Under the pieces are notes generated by a model. The model worked only from the letters and a program-made list of their open reading frames with translations, did no database searches and was not told the origin of the DNA. Positions 2,319 through 31,589 of a stretch of 32,562 nt of DNA are shown piece after piece. Both the position numbers and the translations under genes were made by a program. The stretch covers positions 6,844,117 through 6,876,678 of the forward strand of contig NC_057746.1 in NCBI RefSeq assembly GCF_004010195.1, written 5' to 3'. The stretch's first letter is position 1. Every line of letters starts with the position of its first letter. The stretch comes from Chiloscyllium plagiosum. Taxonomy: Eukaryota.

Positions 2319-2844
2319 CACAGTATTCCAGCTGTTGCCTGAGTAGCACCCTGTATAGTCTTAGCTAAACTTCCCTGTTTTTATATACCATTCCCTTTGA
2401 AATAAAGGCCACCATTCCCATTACCTCTCCCTGTGAGCCACTGAGATTGGATGATAGCTTTCTGTGATTCATGGGTGGGGCTCTTCTGGTTGGTTTGGTT
2501 CCTCCAGTCTCTGAGAAGTGTGTCAGCCTCCACTGCCCCCCTGTGGAGACAGGAGGATCTGCAGAAGGCTCTCGACGTGGATGAGGAGAGACAGGGGGTA
2601 GATCTGTGGTCAATGTGCTCTCAGAGCTTCAGCCACCCCGTGTTGAAACAGAAGGATATGGAGTGGGCTGTTCTCCAGTAAGAACAACAAATGGGGAGCG
2701 GGGTGGGGGCCTGTGTTGGTGCAGAAGGCCCTGTACAGTGACGGTGGGCAGTCACCTTTAGTTTGAGAAGACAGTGGGGACCTGGACCCCAGTGCCCCCT
2801 CTCCTGCTGTAATTCAATCCCCTCCTGTCACTCTCTTCTTTCTG

Positions 2845-5473: not shown

Positions 5474-8400
5474 TATATTAAACAGAGTCAGCGACTTCAG
5501 GAGTTACGGGATCATGTAAATATTATATTAAACAGTGTCATCGATTTCGGCAGTTACAGGACAATGTAAATACATTATTAACCAGAGTCAGCGTTTTCAG
5601 GAGTTACAGGATAATGCTAATAATACATTAAACAAAGTCAGCGATTTCGGGAGTTACAGGATAATGTAAATAATATAGAAAACAGAGACGGCGATTTCAG
5701 GAGTTACAGGAGAATGTTAATCACATATTAAACAGAGTCAGCGACTTCGGGAGTTACAGGAAAATGTGAATAACATATGAAACAGAGTCAGCGATTTCGG
5801 GAGGTTCAGGATAATGTAAATAATATATTAACCAAATTCACCGATTTCGGGAGTTACAGGATAATTTAAATAATATATTAAACAGAGGCAGCGATTTCAT
5901 GAGTTACCGGATAATGCAAATAATACATTAAAGAGAGTCAGCGATTTCAGGAGTTACAGGATAATGTAAATAATTTATTAACCAGAGTCACCGATTTTGG
6001 GAGGTACAGGATAATGCAAATAATACATTAAACAGAGTCAGCGATTTCAGGTGTTCCAGAATAATGTAAATACTATATTAAAGAGAGTCAGCTATTTCGG
6101 TAGTTACACGATAATATAAATAATATATTAAACAGAGTCAGCGACTTCGGGAGGTTCAGGATAATGTAAATAATATATTAACCAAAGTCACCGATTTCGT
6201 GAGTTACAGGATAATTTAAATAATGTATTAAACAGAATCAGCGATTTCAGGAGTTACCGGATAATGCAAATAATATATTAAAGAGAGTCAGCGATTTCAG
6301 GAGTTACAGGATAATGTAAATAATTTATTAACCAGGGTCACCGATTTCGGGAGCTACAGGATAATGCAAATAATACATTAAACAGAGTCAGCGATTTCAG
6401 GTGTTCCAGGATAATGTAAATACTATATTAAACAGAGTCAGCTATTTCGGGAGTTACACGATAATGTAAATAATATATTAAACACAATCAATGATTTCCG
6501 AATTTACAGGATAATGTAAATAATATATCAAACAGAATCAGCAATTTCAAGAGTTCCAGGATAATGAAAATCATACATTAAATAGAGTCAGCGATTTCGG
6601 GAGTTACAGGATAAATTAAATAATATATTAAACAGAGCCAGCGACTTCGGCAGTTACCGGATAATGTAAATAATGCGATTTAATGTGTTACAGGATAATG
6701 TAAATAACATATTAAAGAGTCATCGATTTCGGGAGGTACAGGATAATGTAAATAATGTGTTAAACAGAGTCAGCGATTTCGGGAGTTACAGGATAATGTA
6801 AATAATATATTAAACAGTGTCAGCGACTTCGGGAGTTACAGGATAATGTAAATAATATATTAAACAGAGTCAGCGATTTCGAGAGTTACAGGATAATTTA
6901 AATAATATATTAAACAGAGTCAGCGATTTCGGGAGTTACAGGATAATGTAAATAATATAGTAAACAGGATTTCAGGAGTTACAGGATAATGTAAATAATA
7001 TATTAAACAGAGTCAACGATTTCAGGAGTTCCAGAACAATGTAAATAATATATTAACCAAAGTCACCGATTTCGGGAGTTACAGGATAATTTAAGTTATA
7101 TATTAAACAGAGTCAGCGACTTCAGGATTTACAGGATAATGTATATAATATATTAAACAGCGTCAGCGAATTCGGGACTTACAGGATAATGCAAAGAATA
7201 TATTAAAAACAGTCAGCGATTTCGAGTGTTACAGGAAAATGATAATAATATATTATAGAGTCAGCGATTTCGGGAGGTACAGGATAATGTGAATAATATT
7301 TGAAACACAGTCAGTGATTTCGGGAATTACAGGATAAGTTAAATAATATATTAAAAGGAATCAGTGATTTTGGCAGTTAAATGATAATATAAATAAAATA
7401 TTACACAGTGTCACCGATTTCGGGAGTTGCAGGATAATTTGAATAATGTATTAAACAGAGTCAGCGATTTCGGGAGTTACAGGATAATGTAAATAATATA
7501 TGAAACAGAGTCAGCGATTTCAGGAGTTACAGGATAATGTAAATAAAATATTATACAAAGTCAGCGATTTCTGGAGGTACAGGATAATGTAAATAATATA
7601 GTAAACAGAGTCAGCGATTTCAGGAGTTACAGGATAATGTAAATATTATATTAAACAGAGTCCGCGATTTCGGGAGTTACAGGATAATGTGAATAATATA
7701 TTAAACAGAGTCAGCGATTTCAGGAGTTACAGGATAATGTAAATAATATACTAACCAGAGTCCGCGATTTCGGGAGTTATAGGATAATGTAAATAATGTA
7801 TTAAACAGAGTCAATGAGTTCGGGAGTTACAGGATAATGTAAATAATATATGAACCAGAGTCCGCGATTTCGGGAGTTACAGGATAATGTGAATAATATA
7901 TTCAACAGAGTCAGTGATTTCGGGAGTTCCAGGATAATGTAAATAATATATTAAACAGAGTCAGCGATTTCAGGAGTTACAGGATAATGTAAATAATATA
8001 TTAAACAGAGTCAGCGATTTCAGGAGTTCCAGGATAATGTAAATATTATATTAAAGAGAGTCAGCGATTTCAGGAGCTACAGGATAATGTAAATAATATA
8101 TTAAACAGAGTCAGCGATTTCAGGAGTTACAGGATAATGTAAATAAAATATTAAAGAGAGTCAGGGATTTCGGGAGGTACAGGATAATGTAAATAATATA
8201 TTAAACAGAGTCAGCGATTTCAGGAGTTACAGGAAAATGTAAATAAAATATTATACAGAGTCAGCGATTTCTGGAGTTACAGGATAATGTAAATAATATA
8301 TTAAACAGAGTCAGCGATTTCAGGAGTTACAGGAAAATGTAAATAATATATTAAACAGAGTCAACGATTTCAGGAGTTACAGGATAATGTAAATAATATA

Positions 8401-8519
8401 TTAAAGAGAGTCAGCGATTTCGGGAGGTACAGGATAATGTAAATAATATATTAAACAGAGTCAGCGATTTCAGGAATTACAGGATAATGTAAATAATATA
8501 TTAAACAGAGTCAGAGACT
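5474..8519. repeat. 50-bp AT-rich minisatellite, ~61 copies, with a 350-bp higher-order duplication
   Basis: Consensus tatattaaacagagtcagcgatttc(a/g)ggagttacaggataatgtaaataa; diagnostic variants at ~5781-6130 recur at ~6131-6480. Confidence 0.97.
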
Positions 8520-8584: not shown

Positions 8585-8807
8585 TCAATTGTACCGGAGA
8601 ATGTCCCCCACACCATCTGTCTGGACAGTGCGGTACATGGTGAACTGGTTATTTACCCTCATGCAGGCTCTGGGTCCCTCACTCCCTGAAATTAGGACCA
8701 CTGGTCTCAAAACCCTCCTCCCACAGCCTTCAGGGGGAACCAGCTCCTTCATATTGCTGTCATCGTTCTCCTGTATCATACCAGTAACATCAGCAACACC
8801 ACACACT
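8585..8807 (-). CDS. Candidate terminal coding exon, unknown gene
   Basis: Acceptor tgtctgctcctgccAG|A, then ~73 open codons VCGVADVTGMIQENDDSNMKELVPPEGCG...DILRYN*; the other two frames stop early; unique island between two minisatellites. Confidence 0.3.
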
Positions 8808-8892
8808 CTGGCAGGAGCAGACACACATGCACAGAACTCAATATTTCCACAGATTAATGAGAAGACAGAATATAGTCATTTTAATCAGCCAG

Positions 8893-11268
8893 ATACAACA
8901 CAGGACCCGTAAATAAACCCTAAAATACAGAGCCCCCCGTAAACAAACCCCAAAACACAGAAACTCCTATAAATGAACACTGAAACACACTGCCACCTGT
9001 AAATGAACCTGAAAACTCAGAGGTCTGCGAAAATGAAGCCTATACCACACATCCCCCCGTAAATAAACCCCAAAACATAGGAACCCCTGTAAATAAACAC
9101 AGGGCCCCCTGGAAATAAGCCCTAAAACACAGAGCTCCCTGTAAATAGACCCTAAAACACAGAGGTCCCTATCAATAAATCCTAAAACACAGGGCCGCCT
9201 GTAAATAAACTCTCAAACACACAGCCCACTGTAAATAAACCCTAAAATGCAGCGTTCCCTGTAAATAAACCCTAAAACACAGAGCCCCCTGTAAGTGTAC
9301 GCTAAAACACAGAGCCCCTGTAAAAATACCCCAAAATACAGAGCTCGCTGAAAATAAATCCTAAAACACAGAAACCCCTGTAAATGAACACTGAAACACA
9401 CTGCCCTCTGTAAATAAACCCTAAAACACTGGGTCCCCAGCAAATAAAACCTAAAACACACAGCTCCGTGTAAATAAACCCTAAAACACAGGGCCCCCTG
9501 TAAATAATCCCTAAAACACTGGGCCCCCTGTAAATAAACCCTAAAACACAGAGCCCCCTGTAAATAAACCCTAAAACACACAGCTCCATGTAAATAAACC
9601 TTAAAACACAGGACTCCCTGTAAGTAATTCCTAAAACACAGAGCCCCCTGTAAATAAACCCTAAAACACAGAGACCCCCGTAAATAAACCCTAAAACATA
9701 CAGCTCCATGTAAATAAACCCCAAAACACAGGGCCCCACGTAAATAAACCCTAAAACACAGGACTCCCTGTAAATAAACCCTAAAACACAGAGCCCCCCG
9801 TAAATAAACCCCAAAACACAGGGCCCCACGTAAATAAACCCTAAAACACAGGGTTCCCTGTAAATAAACCCTATAACACAGGGCCCCCTGTAAATAAACC
9901 CTAAAACACACAGCTTTGTGTAAATAAACCCTAAAACACAGAGAAAGTGAGGACTGCAGATGCTGGAGATCAGAGCTGAAAATGTGATGCTGGAAAAGCG
10001 CAGCAGGTCAGGCAGCATCCAAGGAGCAGAAGAATCGACGTTTGGGGCATGAGCCCTTCTTCAGGAAAGAAGGGCTCATGCCCCAAACGTCAATTCTCCT
10101 GCTCCTTGGATGCTGCCTTACCTGCTGCGCTTTTCCAGCAACACATTTTCAGCTAAAACACAGATACCCCAGTAAATAAACCCTAAAACACACAGCTCCA
10201 TGTAAATAACCCATAAAACACTGAACTACCATAAATAATCACTAAAACACAGCGACCCCTGTAAATCAACTCTAAAACACAGAGACCCCTGTAAATGAAC
10301 CCTAAAACACACTTCCTCCTGTAAATAAACCCTAAAACGCAGAGCTCCCTGTAAATTAACCCTAAAACACAGAGTTCCCTGTAAATAAACCCAAAAACAC
10401 AGGGCCCCCTGTAAATAAACCCTAAAAGACACAGCCCCTTGTAAATAATCCCTAAAACACAGAGACCGCTGTAAATAAACCCTAAAACACAGAGCTCCCT
10501 GTAAATAAAGCCTAAAACACAGAGTCCCTTGTAAATAAACCCTAAAACACAGTTCCCTATAAATAAACCCTAAAACACAGAGCCGCCTGTTTCACACAGA
10601 GCCCCCGTATATAAACCCTAAACCACAGAGAACCCTATAAATAAACCCTAAAACACAGAGCCGCCTGTTTCACACAGAGCCCCCGTATATAAACCCTAAA
10701 CCACAGAGAACCCTATAAATAAACCCTAAAACACAGAGCCGCCTGTTTCACACAGAGCCCCCGTATATAAACCCTAAACCACAGAGAACCCTATAAATAA
10801 ACCCTAAAACACAGGGCGCTCTGTAAATAAACTCTAAAACACAGAACCTCTCTAAATGAACACTAAAACACACTGCCCCCTGTAAATTAACCCTAAAAAA
10901 CAGAGCTCCCTGTAAATAAACCCTAAAACACAGAGCCCCCTGTAAATAAACCCTAAAACACAGAGCCCCCTGTAAATAAACCCAAAAACACAGAACCCCC
11001 TGTAAATGAACCCTAAAATACATTGACCCCTGTGAATGAACCCAAAAACACAGAGCCACCTGTAAATAAACCCTAAAACACAGAGCCCCCTGTAAATAAA
11101 CCCTAAAACACACAGCCCCCTGTAAATAAACCCCAAAACACAGGGCCCCCTGTAAATAAACCCCAAAACACAGGGCCCCCTGTAAATAAACCCTAAAACA
11201 CAGCGTACACTGTAAATAAACCCTAAAACACAGAGCCCCCTGTAAATAAACCCCAAAACACAGGGTTC
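8893..11268. repeat. 30-bp minisatellite, ~70 copies, containing AAACCCTAAA; interrupted by a hairpin PLE
   Basis: Consensus gtaaataaaccctaaaacacagagccccct; 78-bp higher-order unit x3 at ~10559-10795. Confidence 0.97.
9942..10154. mobile_element. Non-autonomous PLE-derived hairpin element (inverted pLTRs, 88-bp arms)
   Basis: 9974-10061 is the near-perfect reverse complement of 10067-10154, with a 5-nt loop (cagga); preceded by the gaaagtgaggactgcagatgctggaga terminus also seen at 31963-31989. Confidence 0.9.
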
Positions 11269-14069: not shown

Positions 14070-14700
14070 TGTCTGGTGATTGTTGGGGAAAGGCAAACGC
14101 CTTCCCAGCTCCACCTTCAATAGAAGAACCTCCGAGTATTAAAGAAAGATACATGATGCTAGTCTGGTACAGGGAAGCATCCTCTCAGAATCCCTCCCAG
14201 TCACACTTCCTCAGGATGTTACAACAAGGTCACCTCTCATTCCTTTAACGTTTAATGAATAAACACACGACCTGCTCAATTATCCTTCATGAAATAAAAG
14301 TATAGTGATATCGTACTCTCTGTCTTCAGTAAAAGATCTGCAGGGTTGCAGCAGGATTTCCCCACCACTCAGCACTATTTGTGAGCACTAAATACCTGCA
14401 CTTATGGTGCACCAGCTTTATGTAGCTCAGGGACCAGGATACACAGACCCCTCTGGATGATTGAATTCTGTGATCCCTCACTTCATTCGATTCAGTCCAT
14501 GATGCCAAACCAGAAAGTTCATATTGTCGCACATCACACTGCGCCTGAACCACATCTGTCCACTCAGCAAACCCATCCATACCCAACCAGACAGTCTTCA
14601 GGTCACTGCCTACTGGGCAAAAGTTGGAGTGATCAGCAAACGTCGCTATCCCATCCATTTGCTTCCTGCAAGTGGATTGTGAAATCTTCAACACCCTGCA
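14070..14700 (-). mobile_element. Ancient CR1/L2-type LINE RT fragment
   Basis: Minus translation GSVQG..FTIHL...IATFADHSN...EWTDVVQAQCDVRQYEL parallels CR1 RT 'GSVLGPLLFTIYINDL...ISKFADDTK...EWAKKWQMEYNVEKCEV'. Confidence 0.65.
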
Positions 14701-17700
14701 CTGATCCCTGTCTCACTCCATTAGTTACATTGTAAATCACTGAGACCCCAGCACTGATCCCTGTCTCACTCCATTAGTTACATTGTAAATCACTGAGACC
14801 CCAGCACTAATCCCTCTCTCACTCCATTAGTTACATTGTAAATCACTGAGACCCCAGCACTGATCCCTGTCTCACCATATTAGTTACATTGTAAATCACT
14901 GAGACCCCAGCACTGATTCCTGTCTCTCTCCATTAGTTACATTGTCAATCACTGAGACCCCTGCACTGATCCCTGTCTCACACCATTAGTGACATTGTAA
15001 ATCACTGAGACCCCAGCACTGATCCCTGTCTCACTCCATTAGTTACATTGTAAATCACTGAGACCCCAGCACTGATCCCTGTCTCACTCCATTAGTTACA
15101 TTGTAAATCACTGAGACCCCAGCACTGATCCCTGTCTCTCTCCATTAGTTACATTGTCAATCACTGAGACCCCAGCACTGATCCCTGTCTCACTCCATTA
15201 GTTACATTGTAAATCACTGAGACCCCAGCACTGATCCCTGTCTCACTCCATTAGTTACATTGTAAATCACTGAGACCCCAGCACTGATCCCTGTCTCACT
15301 CCATTAGTTACATTGTAAATCACTGAGACCCCAGCACTGACCACTGTCTCACTCCATTAGTTACATTGTAAATCACTGAGACCCCAGCACTGACCACTGT
15401 CTCACTCCATTAGTTACATTGTAAATCACTGAGACCCCAGCACTGACCACTGTCTCACTCCATTAGTTACATTGTAAATCACTGAGACCCCAGCACTGAC
15501 CACTGTCTCACTCCATTAGTTACATTGTAAATCACTGAGACCCCAGCACTGACCACTGTCTCACTCCATTAGTTACATTGTAAATCACTGAGACCCCAGC
15601 ACTGACCACTGTCTCACTCCATTAGTTACATTGTAAATCACTGAGACCCCAGCACTGACCCCTCTCTCACTCCATTAGTTACATTGTAAATCACTGAGAC
15701 CCCAGCACTGACCCCTCTCTCACTCCATTAGTTACATTGTAAATCACTGAGACCCCAGCACTGACCCCTCTCTCACTCCATTAGTTACATTGTAAATCAC
15801 TGAGACCCCAGCACTGACCCCTCTCTCACTCCATTAGTTACATTGTAAATCACTGAGACCCCAGCACTGACCCCTCTCTCACTCCATTAGTTACATTGTA
15901 AATCACTGAGACCCCAGCACTGACCACTGTCTCACTCCATTAGTTACATTGTAAATCACTGAGACCCCAGCACTGACCACTGTCTCACTCCATTAGTTAC
16001 ATTGTAAATCACTGAGACCCCAGCACTGACCACTGTCTCACTCCATTAGTTACATTGTAAATCACTGAGACCCCAGCACTGACCACTGTCTCACTCCATT
16101 AGTTACATTGTAAATCACTGAGACCCCAGCACTGACCACTGTCTCACTCCATTAGTTACATTGTAAATCACTGAGACCCCAGCACTGACCACTGTCTCAC
16201 TCCATTAGTTACATTGTAAATCACTGAGACCCCAGCACTGACCACTGTCTCACTCCATTAGTTACATTGTAAATCACTGAGACCCCAGCACTGACCACTG
16301 TCTCACTCCATTAGTTACATTGTAAATCACTGAGACCCCAGCACTGACCACTGTCTCACTCCATTAGTTACATTGTAAATCACTGAGACCCCAGCACTGA
16401 CCACTGTCTCACTCCATTAGTTACATTGTAAATCACTGAGACCCCAGCACTGACCACTGTCTCACTCCATTAGTTACATTGTAAATCACTGAGACCCCAG
16501 CACTGACCACTGTCTCACTCCATTAGTTACATTGTAAATCACTGAGACCCCAGCACTGACCACTGTCTCACTCCATTAGTTACATTGTAAATCACTGAGA
16601 CCCCAGCACTGACCACTGTCTCACTCCATTAGTTACATTGTAAATCACTGAGACCCCAGCACTGACCACTGTCTCACTCCATTAGTTACATTGTAAATCA
16701 CTGAGACCCCAGCACTGACCACTGTCTCACTCCATTAGTTACATTGTAAATCACTGAGACCCCAGCACTGACCACTGTCTCACTCCATTAGTTACATTGT
16801 AAATCACTGAGACCCCAGCACTGACCACTGTCTCACTCCATTAGTTACATTGTAAATCACTGAGACCCCAGCACTGACCACTGTCTCACTCCATTAGTTA
16901 CATTGTAAATCACTGAGACCCCAGCACTGACCACTGTCTCACTCCATTAGTTACATTGTAAATCACTGAGACCCCAGCACTGACCACTGTCTCACTCCAT
17001 TAGTTACATTGTAAATCACTGAGACCCCAGCACTGACCACTGTCTCACTCCATTAGTTACATTGTAAATCACTGAGACCCCAGCACTGACCACTGTCTCA
17101 CTCCATTAGTTACATTGTAAATCACTGAGACCCCAGCACTGACCACTGTCTCACTCCATTAGTTACATTGTAAATCACTGAGACCCCAGCACTGACCACT
17201 GTCTCACTCCATTAGTTACATTGTAAATCACTGAGACCCCAGCACTGACCACTGTCTCACTCCATTAGTTACATTGTAAATCACTGAGACCCCAGCACTG
17301 ACCACTGTCTCACTCCATTAGTTACATTGTAAATCACTGAGACCCCAGCACTGACCACTGTCTCACTCCATTAGTTACATTGTAAATCACTGAGACCCCA
17401 GCACTGACCACTGTCTCACTCCATTAGTTACATTGTAAATCACTGAGACCCCAGCACTGACCACTGTCTCACTCCATTAGTTACATTGTAAATCACTGAG
17501 ACCCCAGCACTGACCACTGTCTCACTCCATTAGTTACATTGTAAATCACTGAGACCCCAGCACTGACCACTGTCTCACTCCATTAGTTACATTGTAAATC
17601 ACTGAGACCCCAGCACTGACCACTGTCTCACTCCATTAGTTACATTGTAAATCACTGAGACCCCAGCACTGACCACTGTCTCACTCCATTAGTTACATTG

Positions 17701-17717
17701 TAAATCACTGAGACCCC
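14694..17717. repeat. 53-bp minisatellite, ~57 copies, derived from the LINE RT motif
   Basis: Unit ccccagcactga(tccc/ccac)tgtctcactccattagttacattgtaaatcactgaga; its reverse complement encodes SVIYNVTNGVRQGSVLG. Confidence 0.97.
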
Positions 17718-19442: not shown

Positions 19443-19547
19443 CTTCAGTCCCTCCTCTGCCACCACCATTTTTGTCATCCATTCCAATTCAGGATCCCGC
19501 CTGGCAGTGAGACCCTCTCTGACCCCATTCCTCACCAGAAGAGACCC
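19443..19547 (-). CDS. Candidate 105-nt phase 0-0 exon, unknown gene (GSLLVRNGVREGLTARRDPELEWMTKMVVAEEGLK)
   Basis: Acceptor tcttcggttctgtgtgcAG|, donor AAG|GTGAGG, length divisible by 3, only one frame open. Confidence 0.4.
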
Positions 19548-19594
19548 CTGCACACAGAACCGAAGACAGTATTTGCCTTGTGTTGAGTCAAAGC

Positions 19595-20740: not shown

Positions 20741-21790
20741 AACAAAACATCAGTGATTCACTGCTCATAAACACACAGTGTACTGATAGTTTTTATGAAT
20801 TGATAGGTTTGTAGGTGTTGCTGGCTGAATCGGTATTTATTACCCATCCTAGTTGTCCTGGAGAAAGTGATGAGCTCTCATCTTTAACTGCTGTAGTCAT
20901 TAGGGACTGCACACACACACACACACACTATATAAATATACTACACAAACCGAAATGTAAAATAGGAGAGTAAAATACATTTTCACATCTGCAGAACTCC
21001 ATCGGCATTGTCATTTCTGCATGATGTAAATTGTAATTTTGCTTCTGCAATATTGAGGAGGCCGAATGAGCAGGATGCCTGAATTGTGGTTCAGTCAGGT
21101 CACCAGGCAAGGTAAAAGCTGGAGGGGAGGGAATGTGGAGATTGAGAGGAGAGGGCTGTAATGGGGTAGAGAGCGAGAGAGAGAGAGAGAACGGTGAAGC
21201 TAGAAAACAGAGAGGGGGGGAATGAGCCATTCCTTGCATGAGGGGAGAGAGAGAGAAAGAGATTTGCTAAGACCACATCTGGACTGTGAGAGGGAGAGAG
21301 AGAGAGAGGAAACAGGAAGGGAAACTCCAAAGAATGGAAATAAGGATAGAGAGACTGACTTTGGAGGAAGAAAGTGCTCATAGAGAAGAGCTGGAGAAAA
21401 AGGAACCGGATTTAAATTTACATGGACAGAGTGAGTGTGAGGATACAGAAAGAAGAGAGTGACACTTCAAGCTGACGGGAGGGGATTGAATTACAGCAGG
21501 AGAGGGGGCACTGGGGTCCAGGTCCCCACTGTCTTCTCAAACTAAAGGTGACTGCCCACCGTCACTGTACAGGGCCTTCTGCACCAACACCCCGCCCCTC
21601 ACTTGCTGCTGTTACTGTAGAGCAGTCCACTCCATATTCAACACGGGGTGGCAGAAACTCTGAGAGCACATTGACCCCAAACCTGCCCTGTCTCTCCACC
21701 TCCTCATCATCCTTGTTTCGAGCCTCCTGCAGATCCTCCTCTCTCCACAGGGGGGCGGCGGAGGCTGCCCCATTTCTCAGAGACGGGAAC

Positions 21791-21860
21791 CAAACCTGAT
21801 TTCACAGACTCTTCCCGGCAACCGATGACGTCAGGGGACGGCTCTTTATTCTGATTGGTC
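21791..21860 (+). promoter_or_regulatory. S-X1-X2-Y-like regulatory module (RFX X-box, perfect CRE, inverted CCAAT)
   Basis: caaacct (S-like, 21791) ... cttcccgGCAACcg (21811-21824), TGACGTCA (21826-21833), CTGATTGG (21851-21858). Order and approximate spacing match MHC promoters; locally CpG-rich. Confidence 0.6.
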
Positions 21861-22289
21861 TCGCTGTGTAGCAATATTAGACATTGCAATACAGTAGGTG
21901 GGGTGGGAAGGGAAGGTTTGGGGGTGACCCGGAGAATGTGCAGAGGGATACAGACAGGTTAGGAGCATGGGTAAAACTTGGCAATGGAATATAATGTGGG
22001 AAAATGTACTTTGCAGGAATAGAGGATCTGAATATTATTTCAATGGAAAAAGCTACAGACGAGGGATTTGGGAATCCTCACCCATGAATCACAGAAAGCT
22101 ATCATCCAATCTCAGTGGCTCACAGGGAGAGGTAATGGGAATGGTGGCCTTTATTTCAAAGGGAATGGTATATAAAAACAGGGAAGTTTAGCTAAAACTA
22201 TACAGCGTGCTACTCAGGCAAGAGCTGGAATACTGTGAACAGTTCTGTTCCCCTTAACCAAGGAAGGATAGACTGGTATTGGGGTCTGT

Positions 22290-31170: not shown

Positions 31171-31589
31171 ACTACTGCTCTTCTATCTGTTAGGGCTATA
31201 TCTCCATCCACTATTTCCTGATAACCCTTTTCCTCACTTAAGTTTTTTCATTAAAAACATTTTCCTGGCTACCATCAGCTCTGAGCAAGGGTCACTGGAA
31301 CAGACACATTAACTTTGATTTCTGTTGATAGGTGCTGCCAAACCTGCTGAGCGTTTCCAGCAATTTCCATTTTTGTTTCTGATTTCCATCAGCCGTAGTT
31401 CCTTCAGTTTTTACAAAGTTCCTGGCTTTGGGTTAGAAGCAGGATGCTCTGTCTGAGAGGGAGATCATTCGGATTCCACTCCTGAACAAGGCATACCTCC
31501 ATCAGCGCCATCTCCATCAATCACTTCCTCAGCCCTAGCTCCGAAAGTGCAACCAAATGTAATTTAAGATCCGAGAGAGAGCGAGCCAG

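Follow-up and report, generated by a model that had tools for sequence, protein, structure and literature searches.

What might an S-X1-X2-Y module control in a stretch of shark DNA in which no MHC gene had been recognised? The module occupies positions 21791-21858 on the plus strand of a 32,562-nucleotide stretch of the bamboo shark genome (hereafter the window), and its S, X1, X2 and Y boxes stand in the fixed order and orientation of MHC modules (Table 1); the box coordinates of the preliminary description, its gap of 17 nt between X2 and Y, and its distance of 27 nt between the S box and the X1 core GCAAC (21818-21822) were all recovered unchanged. An X1-X2-Y pattern, derived from the site itself, found this single match in the window and none in 100 shuffles. 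The contig of sequencing run X1 covers 21632-21973 with two differences, neither within the boxes, and a contig from sequencing run X2 extends to 21840; the data of both have the character of genomic DNA, and the source sample may be one of the two. The module is real, MHC-linked and non-random. It is best explained, with a probability that we put at roughly 0.55, as a distal enhancer for class I pathway genes, one of a family and likely of the NLRC5 type.

Position in the MHC class Ia region

The window corresponds to C37:6,844,117-6,876,678 and lies between TAP1 and a class I gene in the bamboo shark MHC class Ia region; the contig C37 bears many class I exons and a class II alpha exon. Linkage to MHC, TAP and PSMB genes, which the preliminary description had named as a check, is evident from the TAP2, PSMB8, PSMB9, TAP1 and class I exons that surround the window, and the same gene set makes up the elasmobranch class Ia region as the cited portion of PMC10751288 describes it. 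Because it is linked to the TAP/PSMB set, the class I gene is probably the classical one. From the module it is 83.7 kb to the first coding exon of TAP1, 35.4 kb to the class I alpha-3 exon and 50.7 kb to the promoter module of class I. PSMB9 and TAP1 lie on the same strand, approximately 47 kb apart (C37:6.69-6.78 Mb); in mouse, Tap1 and Psmb9 are arranged head to head and have one common NLRC5 peak (PMC4374748). The same TAP2-like exon occurs at C37:6766891-6767073, inside TAP1, and at 6835471-6835653, near the window, in both places within a 1.6-kb block that is 99% identical and that reflects either a mobile duplication or an assembly error; duplications of 98-99% and stretches of N occur in the region. 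A broken Ig C1-like fragment at C37:6509638-6509784 (+) has 39% identity to a class I alpha-3 exon.

Table 1. Boxes of the module, remnants and repeats of the window, and genes of the surrounding contig C37 (positions without prefix are those of the window)
Feature	Position	Strand	Remark
S box, S-like CAAACCT	21791-21797	+	letters and 27-nt X1-core distance as in the class I promoter 50.7 kb off
X1 box, pyrimidine-rich 5' half and GGCAAC	21809-21822	+	predicted RFX site; CAAC invariant in 10/10 copies
X2 box TGACGTCA, full CRE palindrome	21826-21833	+	predicted CREB/ATF site; central CpG in 7/9 C37 copies
Y box CTGATTGG, inverted CCAAT	21851-21858	+	predicted NF-Y site; ATTGG invariant in 10/10 copies
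Conserved non-coding family flank, GC box at 21752-21758	21728-21790	+	mean pairwise identity 0.69-0.77; frames unconserved
Inverted duplicate of 21446-21796	2492-2844	-	ends in S box; without X1, X2, Y
30-bp minisatellite	9095-11263	-	other scored C37 matches in first introns of class I genes
MHC class I leader exon-end remnant and splice donor	19501-19587	-	exon end at 19536
Truncated PSMB8 exon-1 copy	31398-31511	-	stop after 35 codons
TAP2	C37 6.59-6.62 Mb	-	
Partial TAP2	C37 6.635-6.657 Mb	+	
PSMB8	C37 6.666-6.676 Mb	-	
PSMB9	C37 6.693-6.713 Mb	-	
TAP1	C37 6.760-6.782 Mb	-	
TAP2 and PSMB8 fragments	C37 near 6.836 Mb		
S-X1-X2-Y module of the window	C37 6.866 Mb		
Class I exons	C37 6.901-6.903 Mb	-	leaders at 6.907 and 6.916

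No Ig-domain exon or class I alpha exon was found in the window, where stretches of N could conceal one; the earlier statement that it holds no Ig-domain or MHC exon stands for Ig domains, and has to be amended for the end of a class I leader exon and a fragment of PSMB8 exon 1. The leader remnant matches, at 75-81%, six places that precede class I alpha-1 exons; it has no in-frame start codon, and a SINE-like repeat lies upstream of it. It is found 2.2 kb from the module, which points away from it, and the minisatellite at 9095-11263 is oriented as the remnant is. Directly after this minisatellite, a single-copy open frame of 96 codons occupies 8588-8875 (-); as a candidate downstream exon it was rejected, having matched two unrelated repeat proteins only and no credible homologue. 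Two further tandem arrays, at 5474-8514 and 14698-17717, consist of 50-bp and 53-bp units, and the 53-bp array is 98% homogeneous.

A confined family of paralogous copies

The module is one of ten paralogous copies, which are 66-91% identical over positions -90 to +42 from the X1 core; the window's copy is 70-79% identical to its sisters. A profile search placed nine copies, in both orientations, in C37:6,662,372-6,865,934, a span of 204 kb situated between TAP2 and class I, and the tenth is found on the unplaced 1.8-kb contig C98827. An eleventh, inverted copy at 2492-2844 of the window is truncated in the S box and is missing the equivalent of 21797-22075. A family pattern that allowed X2-Y gaps of 14-24 had six matches in 3.56 Gb, each of them a family copy, and its reversed control had none; since this pattern was drawn from the family, it demonstrates confinement, not discovery. 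Two DNA searches concur, with 5/5 and 4/4 matches in C37:6.66-6.87 Mb or on C98827, and no family copy was found in C37 6.44-6.64, 6.966-7.066 or 1.15-1.25 Mb. A Y-box pattern of 18 nt gave 18 matches as compared to 7 in the control, five being family copies and the rest having noise-level scores. The preliminary description had considered a distal or orphan SXY enhancer marking an MHC-linked region in a shark; the MHC linkage is corroborated by the position between TAP1 and class I, and the epithet orphan does not apply to a module with ten copies. An interspersed mobile element was rejected as a source, the copies not being spread over the genome in searches that score the best candidates only. 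With a loose pattern, 15 matches were obtained in 626 kb and 0-5 in each of ten shuffles; four of the 15 (6668937, 6708988, 7025319 and 7049730) look like chance. Near class II alpha there are two loose matches.

Mean column identity among the ten copies was 0.79 in S, 0.84 in the S-X spacer, 0.88 in X1, 0.73 in X2 and 0.84 in Y; the X2-Y spacer reached 0.43 in its first part (10 nt) and 0.82 in its second part, and identity past Y was 0.41-0.47, the family similarity stopping 2 nt beyond the Y box. Box columns stood above other columns by 0.107 (p 0.005, 20,000 shuffles; 2 of 131 circular shifts), with box limits that had been set with the copies already in view. Among ten paralogues of one genome, boxes and spacer length are kept while spacer letters drift, as is described for mammalian class II promoters in the cited part of PMC4381081. 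Since conservation of the S-X spacer (0.84) and of the flank (0.69-0.77) is on a par with that of S (0.79) and X2 (0.73), box-specific selection appears modest; gene conversion among the copies could contribute to the pattern. CpG observed/expected is 0.58 in the block and 0.33 across the region.

These data bear on the main rival of the enhancer reading, which we consider rather unlikely: the window's copy would be a relic, duplicated together with a block of promoters and pseudogenes and driving nothing now, even if one or two of its sisters are true promoters. Its surroundings fit such an origin, as C37 6.83-6.88 Mb holds TAP2, PSMB8 and class I fragments, a class I remnant lies close by and the duplicate within the window has lost its boxes; yet a copy this divergent from its sisters has kept all four boxes, their spacing and the X2 CpG. 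As an ascertainment check, a flank profile was built from seven copies with the boxes left out; it gave ten strong matches in 526 kb, nine with intact boxes and one truncated, and one weak match beside the truncated copy. None of the ten strong matches has point-decayed boxes, which argues against the relic.

Spacing, S box and the predicted activator

The distance from the X1 core to ATTGG is 36 nt in seven of the ten family copies, 35 nt in two and 41 nt in one; in all five non-family modules of this genome (those of three class I promoters and those at 6,839,983 and 1,214,281) it is 33 nt. The X-Y distance therefore departs from that of the MHC promoters (36 vs. 33 nt), and the preliminary estimate of about 3 nt of extra length, made relative to HLA-DRA, is borne out with this genome's own modules as the reference. 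Beyond Y, at 68-110 nt from the X1 core, four of the nine C37 copies carry a GAS-like site; the window's copy is without one.

The usual X-Y gap is given as 18 bp in PMC7753138; if one counts the X box as closing with the seventh base of X2, which is our own mapping, then 33 nt corresponds to 18 bp and the family distance to 21 bp. By analogy with human XY boxes that are bound and not regulated by CIITA, a 21-bp gap could put the Y box out of phase. In human cells, CIITA-regulated XY boxes measure 46-50 bp, and binding without regulation is frequent among longer ones (PMC4381081); we infer where the family's additional 3 nt would fall on this human scale. The genome scan in PMC4374748 tolerated +/-5 nt, and the 36-nt X-Y distance falls within this range.

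The S box can be compared directly with that of a shark promoter: the class I promoter at 6,916,587, which also contains an ISRE-like site, agrees with the module in the letters of its S box and in the 27 nt from S to X, so that the S box of the module is of the class I type and identical to that of its neighbour. It is also close to the S box that PMC7753138 gives for BTN3A2, and the S box is what decides NLRC5 specificity in mouse, according to the cited section of PMC4374748. A search for the atypical CARD of NLRC5 (PF18461), run with no positive control, had no match in the genome.

The +3 spacing suggests a further reading, in which the copies bind RFX, CREB and NF-Y but recruit no activating NLRC5 or CIITA, and serve as open-chromatin hubs, either constitutive or STAT1-responsive, or else as sinks; we judge both parts of it improbable. 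The family has the longer spacing as a fixed feature, which the promoter modules lack, and GAS-like sites follow Y in four of nine copies; both would suit it. Off-length XY boxes, moreover, bind CIITA without regulation in human B cells (PMC4381081). Against it stand the class-I-type S box at its exact distance, a feature that matters for NLRC5 (PMC4374748 and PMC7753138, as far as quoted there), the description of NLRC5 as more relaxed on X-Y spacing in a passage of PMC7922096, and the H2-T promoters, in which Y is 48 bp from X (PMC4374748).

One of the non-family modules, an S-X-Y module at C37:6839983 (-) with 33-nt spacing, lies beside PSMB8 and TAP2 fragments and is possibly the promoter of the class I remnant or of a lost gene. 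Another, the X-Y module at C37:1214281 (+), also with 33-nt spacing, is 33 kb upstream of the class II alpha exon and inverted to it; a proximal class II module was not picked up by the scans in this stretch, which includes 8.9 kb of N, and a search for class II beta (PF00969) gave no match.

Candidate targets, transcripts and related systems

Only one of six coding starts tested has an X-Y module within 1 kb upstream; none was found in that interval ahead of PSMB8, PSMB9, TAP2, the first TAP1 coding exon and one class I leader, which is the leader nearest the module, and the PSMB8, PSMB9 and TAP2 starts have ISRE-like sites only. Since five of the six starts are without a proximal module, distal action fits. 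The module itself is situated within the MHC and away from the mapped coding starts, with no leader or exon found after Y, and no family copy coincides with any mapped coding start (coding starts, not transcription starts, having been mapped). The class I leader exons are at C37:6907281 and 6916263, and the one that adjoins the gene body has neither an ISRE nor an SXY module in 1 kb.

For the preferred reading of a distal enhancer, work in mammals suggests a sequence of events: RFX, CREB/ATF and NF-Y would bind X1, X2 and Y; the class-I-type S box would favour NLRC5 over CIITA; NLRC5 would be recruited to the box-bound complex; and this complex would loop to nearby promoters. The likely targets would be TAP1, PSMB9, PSMB8 and TAP2, together with the class I gene that has a module-free leader. 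The copy lies inverted at 2.2 kb from the class I leader remnant, so the target that it first served may no longer be functional. Distal S-Y enhancers of the human class II region do bind CIITA (PMC1802633 and PMC1904273, as cited in part). Several observations speak against an enhancer: the 3 nt of extra X-Y length, the boxless duplicate, the absent GAS-like site and the surrounding gene fragments. The NLRC5-occupied modules of mouse T cells count against it as well, in that they lie upstream of transcription starts and are not distal (PMC4374748, in the passages cited).

The first coding exon of TAP1 has a splice acceptor ahead of its ATG, and four family copies lie 21-30 kb upstream of it; the TAP1 promoter, upstream of a first exon that is itself unmapped, could thus be one of these four copies. 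This would suit the part of the relic reading that allows for one or two sister promoters, as would the NLRC5 peak that mouse Tap1 shares with Psmb9 (PMC4374748). Two family copies, at C37:6802890 (+) and 6803076 (-), stand 186 bp apart in facing orientation, and the interval contains two GAS-like sites; this pair, 21 kb upstream of the TAP1 first coding exon, is a candidate TAP1 promoter.

Extending the enhancer reading to the whole family, one may speculate, with doubts slightly greater than those attached to the relic, that a duplicated battery of SXY enhancers, with a spacing of its own and partly coupled to GAS sites, runs the shark class Ia region. Equally tentative is the suggestion that those TAP, immunoproteasome and class I genes which have no proximal module receive their NLRC5-type input from this battery, as an ancient form of locus control. 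The close linkage of class Ia with TAP and PSMB8/9 is regarded as ancestral, and the usual explanation for it is coevolution of the proteins (PMC10751288); common distal enhancers, if true, would be an added regulatory reason for it.

The preliminary description had alternatively proposed an RFX/CREM-type promoter for an exon-like segment on the minus strand. This claim found no support: the segment is in part the shared, non-coding family flank, a stop-free frame of approximately 73 codons exists solely in the window's copy among nine (barring one copy whose frames run into N), the truncated duplicate differs from the segment by several indels, and none of 28 window frames matched Pfam, so that no coding first exon was found beside the boxes. 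The conserved donor-like CAG/GTTTGG was not accepted as a splice site, since these letters are the S box in reverse complement. In minus-strand orientation, the boxes would form a CCAAT-CRE-RFX promoter of an unannotated transcript starting in this segment, a reading that we regard as highly improbable. It could draw on minus-strand open frames 79-83 codons long, on donor-like sites of the same strand, on the class I leader remnant 2.2 kb downstream, and on the intergenic transcripts that flank human distal S'-Y' modules (PMC1904273, as quoted); the frames, however, are not kept in the sisters and have no Pfam match, and a testis-type promoter is not expected to be confined to the class Ia region. 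RFX1-3 sites are palindromic; the 5' half of X1 is instead rich in pyrimidines, as MHC X boxes are described to be. No RNA data set was listed as containing 21400-21900. Of two single-cell runs, each without a positive control gene and therefore uninformative on expression, run X5 (about 2% read) contributed 53 partial reads, all of them outside 20752-21972, and run X6 (about 6% read) gave no reads.

For the human MHC class II locus and the Ii gene, distal S'-Y' enhancers were reportedly described by Krawczyk in 2004 and Masternak in 2003. They resemble the shark copies in their full S-X-X2-Y order away from starts, and in occurring as several copies per locus in either orientation (PMC1802633, PMC1904273, as far as cited). 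In contrast to them, the shark copies lie in the class Ia region, have a class-I-type S box and a function that is predicted; they are clear paralogues with a shared 60-nt flank and a fixed longer X-Y distance. The NLRC5-type SXY modules of the MHC class I, B2m and Tap1/Psmb9 promoters have as their target set the genes that neighbour the shark module (PMC4374748), and the shark module shares with them an S box and S-X distance that match a shark class I promoter; whereas these modules are promoter-proximal, the shark copies are at no mapped coding start, with an X-Y distance greater by 3 nt and an X2 that comes close to a perfect CRE. In the atypical SXY modules of BTN3A1-3, an NLRC5-like S box still works with altered X-Y geometry; there the Y box is reversed, the distance shorter and the site a proximal promoter, in contrast to the retained Y orientation and longer distance of the shark module (PMC7753138, in the portion cited).

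A cartilaginous fish thus uses the S-X-Y layout at class I promoters. No description of this layout at shark MHC promoters was found in the text of the open literature searched, the figures and supplements of which may bear on spacing, and the word 'promoter' is absent from PMC10751288. With their +3 spacer, the ten natural variants constitute a test set for how spacing and S box decide between NLRC5 and CIITA action. Among the minor elements of the region, C37:6625600-6626000 (-), 5.5 kb upstream of TAP2, combines an X1 core without Y with ISRE-like and NF-kB-like sites, and its ISRE/kB part is duplicated at 6663303-6663538 (89%), approximately 1 kb from the family copy at 6662372.
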